Positions 27,001 through 34,690 of a stretch of 64,000 nt of DNA are shown in pieces. The position numbers were made by a program, and so were the translations under genes. Source of the stretch: a virus (taxonomy: Duplodnaviria; Caudoviricetes). Each line of letters starts with the position of its first letter. Position 1 is the stretch's first letter. Below the pieces are notes generated by a model. The model worked only from the letters and a program-made list of their open reading frames with translations, was not told where the DNA came from and made no database searches. Where the stretch lies: positions 32,001-96,000 of IMG/VR virus record IMGVR_UViG_3300028591_000117; one strand, written 5' to 3'.

Positions 27001-28526
27001 TTATTCGTCTATATTCCAATCATCAAATTTATTAAATACTCCTTGTAGCTCTTCTTCTGTAATTAACTTACCTTTAGTAAATGCCCAAAGTAAAGACCTT
27101 CTTAAAGTACTCATAAACTTCTGTTCATTATCATAAGTAGTATAAGGTAGTGTATTCATCTTACCAAATAAACTTTCAATAAGCTTCATATTCTTCTCCA
27201 TACATAATCTTTTATATGTATCTGTAGTTCCAAATGCTTCAATTATATCTATATATTGTTTACTAAATTCAGTATCTACACGAGTTATTCTACCAATTAT
27301 CTGCATTATCTTAGCTATATCATAAGGTAAATCATAAAAAATAATTGCATTAGCTTTTTGAAGATTTATACTCTCACCACCAGCTGAAGTTATAAGTAAA
27401 GGTTTATCTACTGCTATTATATCTTGAATTCTTTTTCTTTCAGACATTGATACTCCACCTTTAATTATTAATGTATTTGAAACTCCTAAATCTCTTTTAA
27501 AAGCTCTTATTAAATAATCTAGTCTCTCAAGAACTGATACATACTCACAATATATTATAGTTGGTTTATTCTCTCTGATATTTTGTAATAATACTTTTAA
27601 TAATAATTTTTCTTTATTTGAAATTTCTTCTCTATCTATTTCATCAGAAACATTATCTACAACAAATGTTATATCTCTTAGTCGAACTGACCAAAAATCT
27701 TTAGCTTTCTCAGACATTTTACCACCAGAAGCTTTTAGATAATTCTTAGTTTCAGTTTCATTAAGATGAGTTGTATGATAGTTAAACTCTAAATTATACT
27801 CTTTTTGTCTTACTATAATTACTTCATTTAAAATAGATTGTAATCTCTCTATATTTTTATATCCAACTATTTCTTCTATTGTTCTTTGAACTTTCTGTCT
27901 ATTTCTTGTAGTTTGCGTTATTCTTTTTCTATTAATAATTAAATAGTTATATTTAAAATTAGACCACGCTCCTAAAAGACTTGGATTTAATAATGTAATC
28001 ATCCAATACATTCCTTCTATATTATTTTTGCAACTAGTAGCTGTTAAAAAATATAATATACAAAATATCTTTCTTATTTGTATAAATTGTTTATACATAT
28101 TAGACTTAGGATTTTGTAGTCCATTATGACTTTCATCAACAATTCCTAAAAGTTTATGCGTTTTATACAACTCAGCTAAAGTTGGTATTGCTTTATCGAT
28201 GCATGTATTAGATATTAATAAAAATCTTCCATTAGGATTTTTAAATGATTTCTCAGTACTTATCATTGAATAGCTTACATGTAATTTTTCAGTTAACTCT
28301 TTTTCAAAAGACATTAAAGCTTTAGGTGGAGCTATAACTATAGTTATCAAATCTCTATTCTTTAACATGAGTTGAGTTGCTAAAGTAACTGCTGTATAAG
28401 TTTTACCTAAACCAGTTAAGTCTGGCCAGATATAACTGCATAAGGTCTTCTTATTGCAAAGTCTATCATTTCATTTTGTTCTTGTTTTAATGGAAACTCT
28501 TTTGATAGTGTATAATCTGGAACCAT
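27001..28526 (-). CDS. SF2/SNF2-type helicase, frame-interrupted in Walker A (36-aa ORF 28416..28526 plus downstream frame)
   Basis: A strong RBS precedes ATG 28526, giving MVPDY...VISGQT*. The next frame continues TGLGKT...IVDESH...LTAT...GGESINLQ...QIIGRITR. Confidence 0.85.
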
Positions 28527-28546
28527 TTAAGCACCACCTCCTTTAA

Positions 28547-28888
28547 TTAAAATTCTATATCTAATTCTTTTATTACATACTCTGTAATTCTATCTAAGTT
28601 TGGTTCTAATTGATACCAAATATCTATTTTAAATACTTCATCTTTATCTGGTCTATGATGTAAACTAGTCACTAAAACCTCATGTTCAGCTTTAGACCAG
28701 TAATAATACATTAGTATACTTTTAATTCCTTCTTTTAATTTTTCATAATTATCTATTTTATCACGTTTTATTCTTTTAAATAAATCATTTACAAACCACT
28801 CACCTAAAACATTAACTCTTTCTAGCTTATTACTATTGAAATCTTCTCTAAAAGCATACCATTCTAATTTTTTATTCTTTTTCTTCAT
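28547..28888 (-). CDS. conserved phage hypothetical protein
   Basis: YYYWSKAEHEV...KIDIWYQL..N motif. Confidence 0.6.
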   Translation of the reverse strand: MKKKNKKLEWYAFREDFNSNKLERVNVLGEWFVNDLFKRIKRDKIDNYEKLKEGIKSILMYYYWSKAEHEVLVTSLHHRPDKDEVFKIDIWYQLEPNLDRITEYVIKELDIEF

Positions 28889-29450
28889 AATTATCTTCTC
28901 TTTCTTCTATTAATCTATCTAATAAAGTACATGCTTGACTATACTCTCTCATATTAAAACCAGTATATGTATCACATTTAACTAAATAAGGAGTTAAATC
29001 TCTTTTAAAACCTACCATATCAGTGTCATCATCTAAAATAACCATAACAGTTTTATCAATATCATAGTTATTTTCAATCATCCAATTCTCTATCTGAACT
29101 CCTCTAGTTTTAAAATAATTCTTATTAGCTCCATCAATAACTTCTACTCTACTGTCTAAACCACTATTTCTAAGAGCTTTTTCAACATCTTTTAATTTAT
29201 GTCCTATAAGCCATGTAGATGTAATAACTATTTTTAAATTATACTCTAAACAAAGTTTATTTAACCACCTAACTGCAAATTCATTAGATACTCTTTTATC
29301 ATTAGGCCAACATAAATCGAAATAAAAACCATCTTTTTCTACCATTCTTCTACCATCAATTGGTTCTGAATATATCATGTGAGTATTTACAACACCATCA
29401 ATATCTAAAAATAATAATCTATCATAACTTAATCTTATACTAGTTACCAT
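28872..29450 (-). CDS. HAD-superfamily phosphatase (Swiss Army Knife RNA-repair type HAD domain)
   Basis: FLDIDGVVN, IVITSTW, VILDDD. Start MVTS at 29450. Confidence 0.8.
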   Translation of the reverse strand: MVTSIRLSYDRLLFLDIDGVVNTHMIYSEPIDGRRMVEKDGFYFDLCWPNDKRVSNEFAVRWLNKLCLEYNLKIVITSTWLIGHKLKDVEKALRNSGLDSRVEVIDGANKNYFKTRGVQIENWMIENNYDIDKTVMVILDDDTDMVGFKRDLTPYLVKCDTYTGFNMREYSQACTLLDRLIEEREDNYEEKE

Positions 29451-29465
29451 ACTCCACCTCAATAC

Positions 29466-29501
29466 TATTATATGAAAAAAGAGACTCAATTGAGTCTCTT
29501 T
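29466..29501 (-). terminator. terminator of the ncRNA island, fused to a TTCATATAATA promoter
   Basis: aaagagactc-aatt-gagtctcttt hairpin with a U6 tract on the minus strand; motif at 29466-29476. Confidence 0.8.
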
Positions 29502-30355
29502 AAATATATTAACTAGGTAGGAATTATTTATTTACCTACAAGTTTAAGACTTAGCTCTGTTTATTAGTTGTACTCTAATGAGGAAGGATTGATTACCTTC
29601 AAGACTGCTAGCTTTAGACAATGTAATACGGTCAAAATCTTTTTCTAAGATTTCGCGTTCCAATTTACACCTTCTGACACAGATTTGTACTGAGTGATTA
29701 ATTGCCAAACTATTATACACCTTTTTACAGGCTTCAACTGCATCTACTTAATGAAAGCTGTGTATATATGCCTCGAACACGTACATATATCACTATCATC
29801 TAGTCGCAACCATCATTCTAGACTGATTATATAAAATTTCGCTATATAAACTCGTTATTATCATAACTCTAAGTCCATTTCAGAACTGTCTATATACCAC
29901 TTACTCCAAGCAAGAGTATTCGTGCACTACATTTGTAGGAAAGTTGTCAAATCTTTCATTATTAAATATAACCATCTTATTAAACTACTATATTTATTAT
30001 TATCTGGCCAAGATAATAACATTTTATAATATAGATTGGATTGATTACCAATATATCAGTACTCAACTACCTATTTCCATTTAACACGGATTTTAGCAGA
30101 CAACATCTATCAAATTTATAGGAGCATATCTCTCCATCAACCGCGAACATTTCTCGTTCTCTCTACTGTTTAGTCGCAACACCACATGTAGACTAGAATG
30201 CATTCGATAGACTCAACTTACACTAACTAAGAATAACAACAAAACTCCCTCGGCTTTTGACCTGGCTACTTAGCTCATGACGAGTTTTTTAACTCGTGTT
30301 AGTTTCTACTCTTATAACGTCGAAATATTGTTTGAGTTACTAAGTTAATATATTT
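29502..30355 (-). ncRNA. large (~855 nt) highly structured non-coding RNA, ROOL/GOLLD-class candidate
   Basis: No ORF >=60 aa on either strand. Ends pair in a perfect 13-bp helix (30343-30355 with 29502-29514). More than a dozen hairpins whose G-U pairs fit the minus strand; duplicated loop motifs; lies next to a tRNA; followed directly by a terminator. Confidence 0.75.
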
Positions 30356-30365
30356 TCAAAGAACT
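30352..30365 (-). promoter_or_regulatory. rRNA-leader-type boxA antitermination element
   Basis: Minus strand AAGTTCTTTGAAAA, matching the Firmicutes rrn boxA GTTCTTTGAAAA, at the 5' end of the large RNA. Confidence 0.65.
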
Positions 30366-30394
30366 TAGTGTATTTAACACTACTCTAATTAATA

Positions 30395-30561
30395 GCTGAT
30401 AATATACTTAAGATTAAAAATAGTTATATTTGTCTATATCAAGGTACCGTCTTCGATATTCCACAGCAAACTACAGCAAATCTTCTTAATTTTGGTTTAC
30501 TGACTTCATTAAGTAGAGTAACTTAATTGAAAGTCACTCTTTTAACTAGTATACTATCAGC
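30395..30561 (-). ncRNA. 167-nt structured RNA or leader domain
   Basis: GCUGAUAGUAUACU (30548-30561) pairs with AGUAUAUUAUCAGC (30395-30408): 14 bp with one G-U. Internal UGACUU/AAGUCA plus AUUAAGU/ACUUAAU hairpin. Begins just after the promoter motif. Confidence 0.6.
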
Positions 30562-30567
30562 ATATTT

Positions 30568-30578
30568 TATTATATGAA
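30568..30578 (-). promoter_or_regulatory. TTCATATAATA phage promoter driving the ncRNA transcript
   Basis: Exact copy of the recurrent motif, with no RBS or ORF downstream. Confidence 0.65.
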
Positions 30579-30604
30579 GTTTTTTAAACTTCCTATAATT
30601 AAAG

Positions 30605-30681
30605 TGGTAGGCAGAGTAGGACTTGAACCCACGACCAAAGCTGTATAAGAACCTCACTCTAACCAACTGAGTTATCTGCCT
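30605..30681 (-). tRNA. tRNA-Ile, anticodon UAU
   Basis: AGGCAGA/TCTGCCT acceptor stem with ACCA end; ACTC/GAGT D-stem; anticodon loop CT-TAT-AC; GTGGG-TTCAAGT-CCTAC T-arm. Confidence 0.92.
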
Positions 30682-31978: not shown

Positions 31979-34690
31979 TTACCTCCATAAGTTTACATTA
32001 TTTTTCATCTGTCTATTTCTACCAATGGTATCATCCCAGCCAGAACCTTGAGGAGAATATAGATTTGCATTATCTTCATTCTCTTCAGTAAATAAATCAT
32101 CAAAATAGTTAGAATTATCTACTTCATCTGAACTAACTTCTTCTTTAGTCTCAGTAGTTTCTTTAACTTCATAGTCTTTTTCAGTAAGCTCATCTCCAGC
32201 AGGTCCTATAATATGAAGATAATTAGGATTTTTCATTAAGTTACCATTAATATCTTCTATATACTTCATTAAACCATGAATATCATTTTTAGCAGCTACA
32301 TCATCATTCATCTTTATATATCTTTTTCCTGTAAAATCTTTAGGAGCTTCGATATATGGTTTAGTATCATACTCAAATGCTACAGTCTGACCCCATCTAG
32401 TTCCAATATCTAGACCTACTTGCATAGGAAAATCCCAGTCTTCATACCAAAGTCTCATACAAGATAGAACCATAGGTACTATAGACTCAACGTGCTGCTT
32501 AGATATATTATAATTTATTTCATCATGAACTGTATTAAGAAATTTAATATAATTACGATTTTTATTTCTAGTTTCTGGATTGGAATAAAACTTATTATAA
32601 ATATTTAAAAAACTTATCTTAAGAATATCTGCACCAGTTCCTTGAATAACTGTATTTGTGCAACTTCTAATTCCAAAGTTATACATTCCTCTATCTTTAT
32701 GTGATAAATACCATCCAAGTCTTCTAGGTCTTCCAAACATAGTTTGAGTTACTCCAGTATCTATTGTTTTTTGTTCATTTTCATGAACCCAGTTAAATAA
32801 AACTGGAGCGCTAGCTTTATAGTCATGAACTAGTTGTTCAGCTTCTTCTAATGGTATTTCAAAGTCTATAGCAAAGTTTCTTGGAGTCATTCCATATAAA
32901 ATACCAAAATTACATCTTTTTGCTTTCTTTCTCTTACTCTTATCATAGTTCTCATCACCCCAAATTTTTCTAGCCATAACCTCATGTAAGTCTCCTCCAG
33001 TTTCAAATGTATGAGACCATAGAGGTTCTCTAGTTAATAAAGCAGGAACTCTTAATTCTTGAGCACTAAAATCACAAGATACCCAATATTTATCATCATC
33101 TGGAGTAAATCCAGAACGAATATTTAAATCTTGTTGAAATCCTTCAATCTTCATTTCATGTAATCCTGGTATATTCCAAATTGACTCTTTAAATACCCAC
33201 TTTAATATTCTAAAACATTTCTCATATCCTTCTTTAAAGTCATAGTCTATAGGAACTTCAGTTACATCTTTAGTAGTATTATTAAACATACATTCTTCTC
33301 TAGGATTATCTAATTTTCCTATAAATTGAGGATATAACTCAATTAATTTATCATATTCTACATAATAACAATTTCCAATTTTTGGTTTTGTTATATTTTG
33401 AATATTACTATCTGCAAAATATGAGTTCTTTTTATCTCCACCAGCAGCTAATCTACCTGAAGGAACTACCATAGTTTTATAACCAAATCTAAGTCTATTT
33501 CCATTAGGATTATCTTTACAAAACTTTACAAAATTATCAGCATAAGTTCCTTTTTGTTTTTGATAATTAGCCATTTTCATGAGACTTTCCATAAAAATTC
33601 TCTTACTATCTTTACTATCTAGATTAAGTCTCTCAATAGTATACTGCATACTACCTTTATCTGATTTTGCTTCTCCTCTTTTATTTAAAGCTGGAATTAA
33701 AGCTCCTGAGTCTGTTGGTTCATAAGTTACAATACCTAACCTTTTAAATGCTTCAGACTTTTGTTTAGGAGAACCTGCATTTATATATCCACCATTAATT
33801 TTATTTAAAGTTTCTTGAGTTTCATCAATTTTCTTTTGATATATCTTAGAATATTTTTTCATCATATTAATATCAACATTAACTAACTCATCTTCCATCA
33901 TCATTAATGGATATAAGAATTGAGTATCAAGCTCGGCTGAGTTTTTCATATTAGGATATTTAGATTTAGGATATCGAGTTCTTCTACCAGGTTCTTCATA
34001 GTAGTCCCAAAGAGCTTGAGCTAGTAGATAAGTTCCTAAAGCATCAGTAGCTGCATAAGTATAACATTCACTAGGTCTTAGTTGATAGAAGTTCTCAGCA
34101 TCTCCTAAAGTTTCTTTAAAACTAGCACCTCTCCAACCTAAATAGTATTCCTCAGAACCTTTTAAATTAGGATAAGGTACATTAGTATCAGAGTCAAAGA
34201 TAATAGCTTGAACATCTATCATCTTATCTATATATTTAGACATATCAAACTCAAAGACTCTTCTTCTATATCTCTCATCCATAGGAATATTATTTTCAAT
34301 AAATCCACATTTTTCTATTACTCTTACATCAAATCGTTGGTTAAAAGTAAAGATATATCTTACTTTTTCTAAAGCTCTATAAAACTTCCGTACTGCTTCT
34401 ATACCTAAACTATCATTATGTTCAACTCCATTTTCATCATAGTATGGAGCATGATTTACAGGAACATAAAAAGCATTTTTTCCGTCATAACAAAAAGAAT
34501 ATCCTACAATAAAACTTTTATCTAAGTTAAGTCCTGTAGTTTCAGTATCAAATGCAACAGCAGTTCCAAATAAACTTAGTACTTTATCTAACTGGTCTAG
34601 ACTTTTTATTAAATAAAAGTTATAGGCATAAGGATATAGATTACTTATAGGAGCTTCAGGTACCCACCTTTTATAGTCTCCTTTAGGCAT
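31979..34690 (-). CDS. polA: family A DNA polymerase with 3'-5' exonuclease
   Basis: FDTETTGL, FNQRFD and YAATDA (exonuclease); SGRL, DFSAQELRV (motif A), RKKAKRCNFGILYG (B), IQGTGADI, VHDEI (C). Confidence 0.95.
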   Translation of the reverse strand: MPKGDYKRWVPEAPISNLYPYAYNFYLIKSLDQLDKVLSLFGTAVAFDTETTGLNLDKSFIVGYSFCYDGKNAFYVPVNHAPYYDENGVEHNDSLGIEAVRKFYRALEKVRYIFTFNQRFDVRVIEKCGFIENNIPMDERYRRRVFEFDMSKYIDKMIDVQAIIFDSDTNVPYPNLKGSEEYYLGWRGASFKETLGDAENFYQLRPSECYTYAATDALGTYLLAQALWDYYEEPGRRTRYPKSKYPNMKNSAELDTQFLYPLMMMEDELVNVDINMMKKYSKIYQKKIDETQETLNKINGGYINAGSPKQKSEAFKRLGIVTYEPTDSGALIPALNKRGEAKSDKGSMQYTIERLNLDSKDSKRIFMESLMKMANYQKQKGTYADNFVKFCKDNPNGNRLRFGYKTMVVPSGRLAAGGDKKNSYFADSNIQNITKPKIGNCYYVEYDKLIELYPQFIGKLDNPREECMFNNTTKDVTEVPIDYDFKEGYEKCFRILKWVFKESIWNIPGLHEMKIEGFQQDLNIRSGFTPDDDKYWVSCDFSAQELRVPALLTREPLWSHTFETGGDLHEVMARKIWGDENYDKSKRKKAKRCNFGILYGMTPRNFAIDFEIPLEEAEQLVHDYKASAPVLFNWVHENEQKTIDTGVTQTMFGRPRRLGWYLSHKDRGMYNFGIRSCTNTVIQGTGADILKISFLNIYNKFYSNPETRNKNRNYIKFLNTVHDEINYNISKQHVESIVPMVLSCMRLWYEDWDFPMQVGLDIGTRWGQTVAFEYDTKPYIEAPKDFTGKRYIKMNDDVAAKNDIHGLMKYIEDINGNLMKNPNYLHIIGPAGDELTEKDYEVKETTETKEEVSSDEVDNSNYFDDLFTEENEDNANLYSPQGSGWDDTIGRNRQMKNNVNLWR

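Follow-up and report, generated by a model that had tools for sequence, protein, structure and literature searches.

A large structured RNA encoded beside tRNA genes in phages of rumen and gut Bacilli, probably of an uncatalogued family

The 64,000-nt stretch of phage DNA analyzed here (the window) comes from an IMG/VR phage record of 123.5 kb, which is 86% complete and has a G+C content of ∼26–30%. We conclude that positions 29502–30365, within the replication block, are probably the gene for a highly structured, abundant noncoding RNA of ∼850 nt that belongs to an uncatalogued phage family. The evidence for the RNA consists of sequence comparison and of contigs assembled from RNA libraries. 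On the minus strand, which carries essentially all genes of the window and all features of the RNA described below, the gene spans ∼30364 to 29502, with its terminator reaching to 29478; the structured RNA body is ∼854 nt long (29502–30355). An initial annotation, made from the letters of the sequence, had proposed that the phage makes a giant structured RNA from this strand. Covariation in 30 homologues, the adjoining tRNA gene, a terminal helix, and a terminator bear this proposal out. The family occurs in 110- to 130-kb phages of Bacilli from rumen and gut, where a tRNA gene nearly always lies immediately upstream of the RNA.

The outline of the gene was largely drawn correctly at the outset. 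The stretch had been described as free of open reading frames (ORFs), and 29502–30365 indeed holds no ORF of at least 60 amino acids under three genetic codes (table 11, table 4, and TAG=Q). It is richer in G+C than its flanks, as stated, although the difference is slight (0.29–0.36 vs. 0.22–0.28). Its ends do pair perfectly, over 13 bp (30355–30343 with 29514–29502), and this terminal helix shows compensatory changes in relatives. Directly after it comes the intrinsic terminator that had been noticed there, a 10-bp stem followed by a U run (29478–29501).

Relatives of the RNA were found in metagenomes. Two conserved blocks, used as exact patterns, retrieved distant members in three places, namely IMG/VR, a "Bacilli bacterium" metagenome-assembled genome (MAG) from yak omasum, and metagenome assemblies that include human-gut ones. 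After removal of identical copies there are 30 distinct full-length homologues, 830–900 nt long and with identities down to 46%. Their full-length homology is backed by profile searches, and partial or more divergent members exist beyond them. The homologues form two main clades, A (that of the window) and B, plus one intermediate, with 46–55% identity between the clades, and they come from phage contigs of rumen, ruminant gut, and human gut. Over the whole length of the stretch, DNA identity to the window is 82% in loci L085 and L003, 71% in L087, and 66% in L090. A search with an AGUC...GACU pattern gave a single match, inside a coding region, which was rejected as a chance match.

The phages themselves are remote from those in culture. 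The region has no blastn match among 50,697 records of isolated phages, and the phage polymerase is <26% identical to any isolated-phage polymerase. Single-protein look-ups in IMG/VR with the neighboring HAD protein and with the polymerase returned no match, and a polymerase profile search there found one relative only, at 44% identity and without the RNA. Metagenomic relatives of the polymerase are many, at 82–40% identity on ∼120-kb contigs, and most of them show a large gene-free gap at the equivalent place. In L004, L086, and one more contig, the gap is short and holds neither the RNA nor the HAD gene. Our literature searches, which did not extend to the 10,006 viral structured-RNA candidates catalogued in 2023, turned up no description of this RNA family.

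The case for a conserved structure begins with compensatory changes, which are visible already in the first pairwise alignment. With 14 sequences, RNAalifold gave 78 pairs, 54 of them with double changes. When the two clades were folded separately, 68 pairs agreed exactly and 157 of 239 agreed within one column. The alignment of all 30 sequences has a consensus of 236 pairs in 43 helices. In this consensus, 91.8% of cells are paired, compared with 75.5% in column shuffles and 40–47% when partners are slid. Changes on both sides of a pair occur at 168 pairs, against 117 ± 5 in shuffles (none of 500 reached 168) and 67–90 with slid partners; the covariation score is 0.49, against 0.20 and ∼0.1, respectively. 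The collection of homologues and the covariation check that had been proposed for this RNA have thus yielded helices that covary. They also confirm the sense of transcription, since the mismatches had been read as G-U pairs on the minus strand and G-U or U-G cells number 852, whereas A-C or C-A cells number only 100. Therefore, the RNA is the minus strand of the window.

Several considerations weigh against this structural reading or limit it. The structure was derived from the alignment on which its pairs were then counted, which inflates the paired percentage; the counts of double changes and the agreement between clades are unaffected by this circularity. The consensus is dominated by clade B, and several of its helices are off-register and fit the window's clade poorly. 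In addition, single-sequence folding energy, also put forward initially as a check, is only marginally better than that of shuffled sequence (z ∼−1.9 on either strand). Because folding energy does not discriminate, the case for structure rests on covariation.

RNA libraries provide the second line of evidence. Sheep-gut metatranscriptome assemblies contain the RNA stretch, and RNA contigs were compared across 10 kb of the window. Two RNA runs from one sample gave contigs identical to the window, at 29554–30657 (depth 16.8) and 29623–30586 (depth 96.8). Flanking genes have depths of 0–3 in the RNA runs with the large-RNA contigs, whereas the DNA run, probably from the source sample, is flat at ∼13–20. 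In a bovine metatranscriptome from a second study, fragments of relatives lie only inside 29582–30348. Two cautions apply here: the contigs give no RNA ends, strand, or processing sites, and RNA libraries may contain DNA. The large-RNA region is, however, 30- to 50-fold overrepresented in the RNA libraries relative to its flanks, which argues against such contamination. The RNA is real and abundant, and in RNA libraries it stands far above the neighboring phage genes.

The same contigs run from inside the upstream tRNA-Ile(UAU) gene (30605–30681) into the large RNA. Because they reach into the tRNA, the primary transcript may start at a promoter-like site upstream of that gene (TAAACA-17-TATAAT with a TG, 30765–30737) and include the conserved spacer of ∼240 nt between tRNA and RNA (30366–30604). 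The same contigs cover this spacer, whose identity is 82–90% in L003 and L085 and which probably belongs to the primary transcript; its last element, just before the large RNA, is a small hairpin (30382–30366). Clade-B members have their own consensus promoter between upstream tRNA and RNA, read from the alignment as TTGAAA-17-TATAAT. The spacer also holds a strong hairpin at ∼30540–30515 and could be a small RNA in its own right or a leader that is processed; 6S and every other Rfam family are unmatched in 30366–30604.

These results leave little room for the possibility that the stretch acts as DNA, for example as a replication origin or packaging site, or is a recoded protein gene. The location, in a replication block beside a polymerase and helicases, would suit a DNA element. 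Against it stand the strand-specific wobble asymmetry, the covariation across long-range helices, and the excess in RNA libraries. There are also no ORFs in three codes and no tandem or iteron-like repeats in the stretch. We consider these alternatives extremely improbable and close to refuted.

In its architecture, the RNA has a long terminal helix that encloses nested long-range helices and many hairpins, ∼43 helices in the family consensus. Since that consensus is off-register for clade A, the coordinates of helices in the window were taken from the clade-A alignment. A hairpin ACGAGUU-AAAA-AACUCGU (30280–30297, consensus helix 6) is followed by a domain (30105–30212) closed by GUCUAUCGAAU (30212–30202) with AUUUGAUAGAU (30115–30105). 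Each of the five clade-A sequences has all 11 pairs of this closing helix (helix 12), and L090 shows compensatory changes there. The long-range helix of GUACUGA (30062–30056) with UCAGUAC (29693–29687) has seven of seven pairs and compensatory changes in L087 and L090 (helix 20); spanning 29687–30062, it encloses the central domains. Within it lie the hairpin AUUGG-UAAUCAAU-CCAAU (30035–30052, helix 21), which is 100% paired, with five of five pairs covarying and a loop motif, GUAAnCAnnC, that is universal in the family, and the hairpin UUAUUAUCU-UGGCC-AGAUAAUAA (29997–30019), whose loop, UGGCCA at 30010–30005, is palindromic.

A second long-range helix joins 29812–29802 with 29711–29699 (helices 35, 36, 40, and 41; 10 of 10 pairs in the window). 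It encloses the most conserved block of the RNA, GUUGAAGCC-GUAAAAA-GGUGUAUAA (29738–29712), which served as the search pattern by which the family was recovered. A candidate pseudoknot (29678–29742) would pair UGCAG (29742–29738) with CUGUG (29682–29678) through five consecutive pairs, three of them with at least three pair types, that are non-nested in the consensus. Toward the 3′ end are the hairpins GAAGG-UAAUCAAU-CCUUC (29583–29600, helix 42, six of six pairs covarying) and GUAGG-UAAAUAAAUAAUU-CCUAC (29517–29539, helix 43, 100% paired); the latter abuts the 3′ strand of the terminal helix.

Five helices named in the initial annotation covary: the terminal helix, ACGAGUU/AACUCGU, UUAUUAUCU/AGAUAAUAA, GUCUAUCGAAU/AUUUGAUAGAU, and GUACUGA/UCAGUAC. 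A sixth, the long-range UAAUGAAAG/CUUUCAUUA helix, breaks in relatives (three of nine and five of nine pairs); what covaries at its site is a local hairpin, GAAAG/CUUUC (in L085, GAGGG/CUCUC). The loop GG-UAAUCAAU-CC had been reported on two stems. Both hairpins are real, and GGUAAUCAAUCC is present twice and exact, at 30049–30038 and 29597–29586, but identity of the second loop to the first is confined to clade A and L103. The data would be compatible with, but do not demonstrate, pairing of the two UAAUCAAU-type loops with each other or with invariant GUUGA elements. Two hairpins of the form AGUC-15 nt-GACU were not conserved, since relatives keep two or three of their four pairs. Copy 1 sits within a conserved element closed by CUAC/GUAG, and copy 2 contributes to the covarying long-range helix 29812–29802/29711–29699. 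The internal domain duplication drawn from these repeats is not supported, as the recurring motifs are only 10–17 nt long.

Having established a structured RNA, we compared it with known families. To our knowledge, very large structured RNAs of bacteria and phages without an assigned function are rare, the examples being OLE, GOLLD, ROOL, HEARO, and raiA. Each of these has become a target of structural biology, and for three of them recent work has shown assembly from RNA alone. At the Rfam 15 gathering level, the only match in the window is the tRNA, and seven related loci have no match for the RNA. Permissive scans of the RNA from both clades, at E up to 10, gave chance-level matches only, and OLE, HEARO, raiA, RNase P, transfer-messenger RNA (tmRNA), 6S, and group I and II introns are unmatched in 29300–30650 at the same limit. 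Across the full 123.5 kb of the phage, 13 candidates were scored with the GOLLD model (RF02032, gathering threshold 150 bits), and none matched at E up to 10. ROOL (RF03087, 99.1 bits) is unmatched in the Rfam scans, whether run at gathering level or with E up to 10; a search of the whole phage with its model likewise gave no match at E up to 10, although the controls of that search gave no signal either.

It is useful to set the RNA beside these two families. GOLLD RNAs are ∼800 nt long, with many helices and pseudoknots, and occur in phages and prophages beside tRNA islands; self-complementary kissing loops join their subunits into an RNA-only cage, a 14-mer. The large RNA resembles them in being phage-encoded, tRNA-adjacent, ornate, and of similar length (830–900 nt in 30 members). 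However, the feature that defines GOLLD, a 3′ domain conserved throughout that family, is missing here; the large RNA has two conserved halves, which long-range helices interlock. ROOL RNAs, of ∼580 nt, come from rumen and Bacillota, are phage-encoded near tRNAs, and can equal rRNA in abundance. Their 5′ and 3′ parts intertwine, and they too build a homo-oligomeric cage via self-complementary kissing loops. Again the rumen source, phage coding, nearby tRNA, and abundance are shared, whereas the length (∼580 vs. ∼850 nt) and the unmatched model set the two apart.

The initial annotation had offered either a divergent ROOL or GOLLD or a new class. The second half of that proposal stands, as the class is absent from Rfam 15; the first is not borne out, as neither model matches. 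One might still suppose a GOLLD or ROOL so divergent as to lie beyond the reach of narrow Rfam models, given the GOLLD size class, the phage setting, the tRNA-island neighbor and great abundance common to both families, and the discovery of ROOL in rumen samples, to which it owes its name. Yet the models are unmatched in the whole phage, in the RNA of two clades, and, at gathering level, in seven loci, and the universally conserved 3′ domain of GOLLD is exactly the part without a match. We regard this explanation as very unlikely. In lifestyle, the large RNA belongs with GOLLD and ROOL; it shares one module with manA and constitutes a new family.

The module shared with manA is at the 3′ end. 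The manA model (RF01745, threshold 55.2 bits) scores 8.2 bits at 29517–29574 of the window, 11.8 bits in L101, and 17.5 bits (E 0.0016) on the 3′-terminal 164 nt of L104, where the whole model is covered. In all three phages the match lies at the 3′ end of the RNA and is the sole manA match. Such co-location cannot be accidental, but the scores lie far below threshold. The 3′ end of the manA consensus consists of a U, a stem G.nGG, a loop UA..A.UAAU, a stem CCn.C, and a closing strand, and the large RNA has the same order. In clade B, GUGACUGAAUA is identical to the manA consensus stretch GUGaCUGAAUA. Both RNAs are phage-associated, and in both the 3′ strand of the closing helix is directly preceded by a hairpin whose loop is GGUA...AnUCC. 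They differ in that manA is a compact core of <200 nt with three internal hairpins, whereas here ∼700 nt between the modules have no manA counterpart. manA RNAs are reported to build RNA-only decamers and 60-mer cages through kissing loops (2026 preprint, 10.64898/2026.07.01.735769).

These likenesses allow a different reading, in which the RNA is an extremely enlarged relative of manA whose terminal helix, the 5′ module immediately within it, and 3′ hairpin form the manA frame, with ∼700 nt inserted. The placement of the model matches in three phages, the common order of 3′-terminal elements, and the identity of GUGACUGAAUA all speak for it. Every score is nonetheless far under 55.2 bits, and Rfam scans at E up to 10 are empty. 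In the reciprocal direction, a model of the family's 3′ domain picks up no more than the hairpin in L093, at 18.8 bits, and has no match in the manA-like L092. Moreover, GUGACUGAAUA pairs here with a distant 5′ region (helices 8–11) rather than standing behind the closing helix. We therefore hold an enlarged manA to be unlikely, and regard manA, among catalogued RNAs, as the nearest relative of a single module and not of the family. The manA-like RNA of L092 is of separate note: in this unrelated IMG/VR phage contig, 7589–7780 scores 38 bits, below threshold, in a 450-nt gene-free gap, and ends with the same 3′ hairpin, through whose pattern the contig was hit.

We now return to the RNA as a family of its own and to its 5′ edge. 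There, a boxA-type motif, GUUCUUUGAAAA (30353–30364), is kept in both main clades. In rRNA (rrn) operons, boxA is the site bound by NusB/S10 in antitermination, and the motif had been taken from the start for an rrn boxA. As a sequence match, this identification is upheld by the putative host order, that of the "Bacilli bacterium" MAG (G001) in which a sister phage contig is binned, where GTTCTTTGAAAAC stands in the 16S leader and in the 16S–23S spacer. Among 31 genomes of that order, the 13-mer GTTCTTTGAAAAC occurs 13 times, vs. six for a reversed control. Ten loci were fetched around it and six proved to be rrn operons, with the motif in the 16S–23S spacer (five) or upstream of 16S (one). 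In G001 itself, two matches to the boxA pattern were found, neither near an rRNA gene, which is chance level. Small-genome Bacilli belonging to the order of MAG RGIG9670 are candidate hosts. The exact boxA string appears in papers only as a universal mycoplasma rRNA-spacer PCR primer, which fits the reading as an rrn motif.

The likeness to rrn leaders and spacers extends to a small hairpin just upstream, a tRNA in the unit, and a product enclosed by a long flank helix. The product, however, is not rRNA, and in clade B boxA is itself a strand of the enclosing helix: it forms the 5′ strand of an extended terminal helix, with UUUUCARRGAAC as 3′ partner. In helix 1, the 5′ strand stays UUCUUUG while the 3′ partner drifts from A to G through wobble. 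A fixed boxA strand facing a wobbling partner suggests a constraint beyond pairing. Against this, boxA is altered in L097 and L115 with compensating changes in the 3′ partner. Since both strands changed together there, part of the conservation of boxA is conservation of the helix. The terminator's 5′ arm, AAAGAG, can alternatively pair with the UUCUUU of boxA. In the window, boxA pairing and the terminator exclude each other, because the 3′ partner of boxA overlaps the terminator 5′ arm. Whether boxA would recruit the host NusB/S10 antitermination complex is, in our estimate, evenly balanced. For the large RNA, Nus binding and RNase III cleavage are both predictions from sequence.

The palindromic loop at 30010–30005 points to another property. 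Among 17 hairpin loops of the consensus, this one (UGGCCA) alone has a palindromic tetranucleotide in every sequence. Of the 30 aligned sequences, 28 have GGCC there (30009–30006 in the window), as do all four of the added partial relatives in which the loop is covered; elsewhere the tetranucleotide is GUAC (L090), CUAG (L103, of which L122 is the same contig), or GAUC (L112). Three independent replacements would all stay palindromic by chance in ∼2 of 10,000 cases. A four-base palindrome is unable to pair within its own loop, and in 20 of the 30 RNAs (19 with GGCC, plus L103 with CUAG) the tetranucleotide occurs nowhere else. Because the loop is always palindromic without a conserved second copy, pairing between two RNA copies is the simplest reading. 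The same logic flagged the intermolecular loops of ROOL and GOLLD, a parallel that is not proof here. Against self-pairing, each of the three non-GGCC palindromes comes from a single lineage, and that of L103 overlaps a possible stem base. We find it credible, on a footing somewhat less than even, that the RNA pairs with copies of itself through this loop and forms an RNA-only oligomer as in GOLLD, ROOL, and manA.

On the minus strand, the gene order is polymerase, two small ORFs, tRNA-Ile(UAU), ∼1.1 kb without ORFs, HAD_SAK_2, a 113-residue ORF, and an SNF2-type helicase. The family-A DNA polymerase is called at 34690–31979. The HAD_SAK_2 phosphatase gene (28872–29450; Pfam PF18143, E 3.8e-19), downstream from the RNA, is of a family whose definition comes from RNA-repair proteins. 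Among the loci of the window's clade, five have both RNA and HAD_SAK_2, three have neither, and one lineage has the RNA alone (L087–L089). In clade B, a conserved protein of 370–410 residues follows the RNA in most phages (L099:4925–6073 and 14 homologues), replacing HAD. It matches no Pfam, PHROG, or Atlas family. Its AlphaFold model has a mean predicted local distance difference test (pLDDT) score of 55, with the N-terminal 115 residues confident and the rest poor, and a fold search gave residues 1–115 a middling HIRAN-like match (Z 5.9–7.4).

These neighbors bear on the idea that the stretch is not a free-standing RNA at all but a long cis-acting leader or antisense regulator of the HAD_SAK_2 or helicase gene. 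The mostly joint gain or loss of RNA and HAD gene in the window's clade agrees with it. But a strong terminator separates the RNA from HAD, L087 keeps the RNA without HAD, and the downstream gene of clade B is unrelated. The RNA is also 30–50 times more abundant than either neighbor, and its GGCC loop is kept, or swapped for other palindromes, across phages with different neighbors. Such a regulator has little to recommend it, and we judge it highly improbable.

The tRNA gene directly upstream, on the same strand, is found in nearly every locus. Its identity varies: Cys in most of clade B, Phe in the L091 group, Ile in the window, and Asp in L087. In several clade-B phages, the RNA is embedded in arrays of 10–23 tRNAs plus tmRNA. 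Phage tRNA arrays are thought to counter host tRNA-targeting defenses.

We can outline how a free-standing RNA of this kind might be made and used. With NusB/S10 bound at boxA, RNA polymerase would be able to read through 850 bases that are untranslated and dense in hairpins, halting only at the strong terminator. The terminal helix would then play the part of an rRNA stalk in processing or protection, and the finished RNA oligomer would serve the phage in taking over tRNA and translation functions. A wider picture is conceivable but doubtful: that the family is an independent class of self-assembling giant RNA after GOLLD, ROOL, and OLE, made Nus-dependently, whose manA-like 3′ module would link the small manA and the giant RNAs into one superfamily of RNA-only compartments acting on host tRNA and translation machinery. 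The family may be relevant in several respects. First, it adds an ∼850-nt class with members diverse enough for covariation-based modeling. Second, very high expression of a large RNA is seen directly in ruminant gut samples. Third, two predictions follow, namely Nus-dependent, rRNA-like synthesis and self-pairing through a palindromic loop. Finally, given its place in tRNA arrays in rumen and human gut, the function of the RNA may bear on how large phages take over translation.

Several further observations concern the surroundings of the RNA. In the window's clade, the RNA and HAD_SAK_2 together form a presence/absence cassette of ∼1.5 kb (window 28872–30365, compared with L004:6859–7390 and L086:9583–10282, at polymerase identities of 63–78%). 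Farther downstream, the helicase frame looks split at 28368–28547: the 5′ extent of a 455-residue ORF ends at 28368, and a 180-nt gap precedes the 113-residue ORF. Genes for tmRNA lie within a few kilobases of the RNA, next to tRNA-Met, in many clade-B phages (L091:268–691, L098:12702–13102, and L100:10688–11105, with further ones near the RNA at L101:8237–8634, L118:4991–5390, and L133:1073–1493). ARAGORN reports a tRNA with a CUA anticodon, as tRNA-Pyl, at L118:11437–11513 and L136:9696–9783, and the latter lies immediately against the large RNA's 5′ end. Such a tRNA is possibly an amber suppressor and a hint of TAG recoding in those phages. Lastly, in the tRNA arrays of two clade-B phages, 280–300 nt (L091:4004–4282 and L094:7913–8216) match the 3′ half of the OLE model, positions 282–595 of 616, with 107–108 bits against a threshold of 50 bits and a partial overlap with a tRNA-Asn call. 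It would be unusual for a phage to carry a partial OLE-like RNA.

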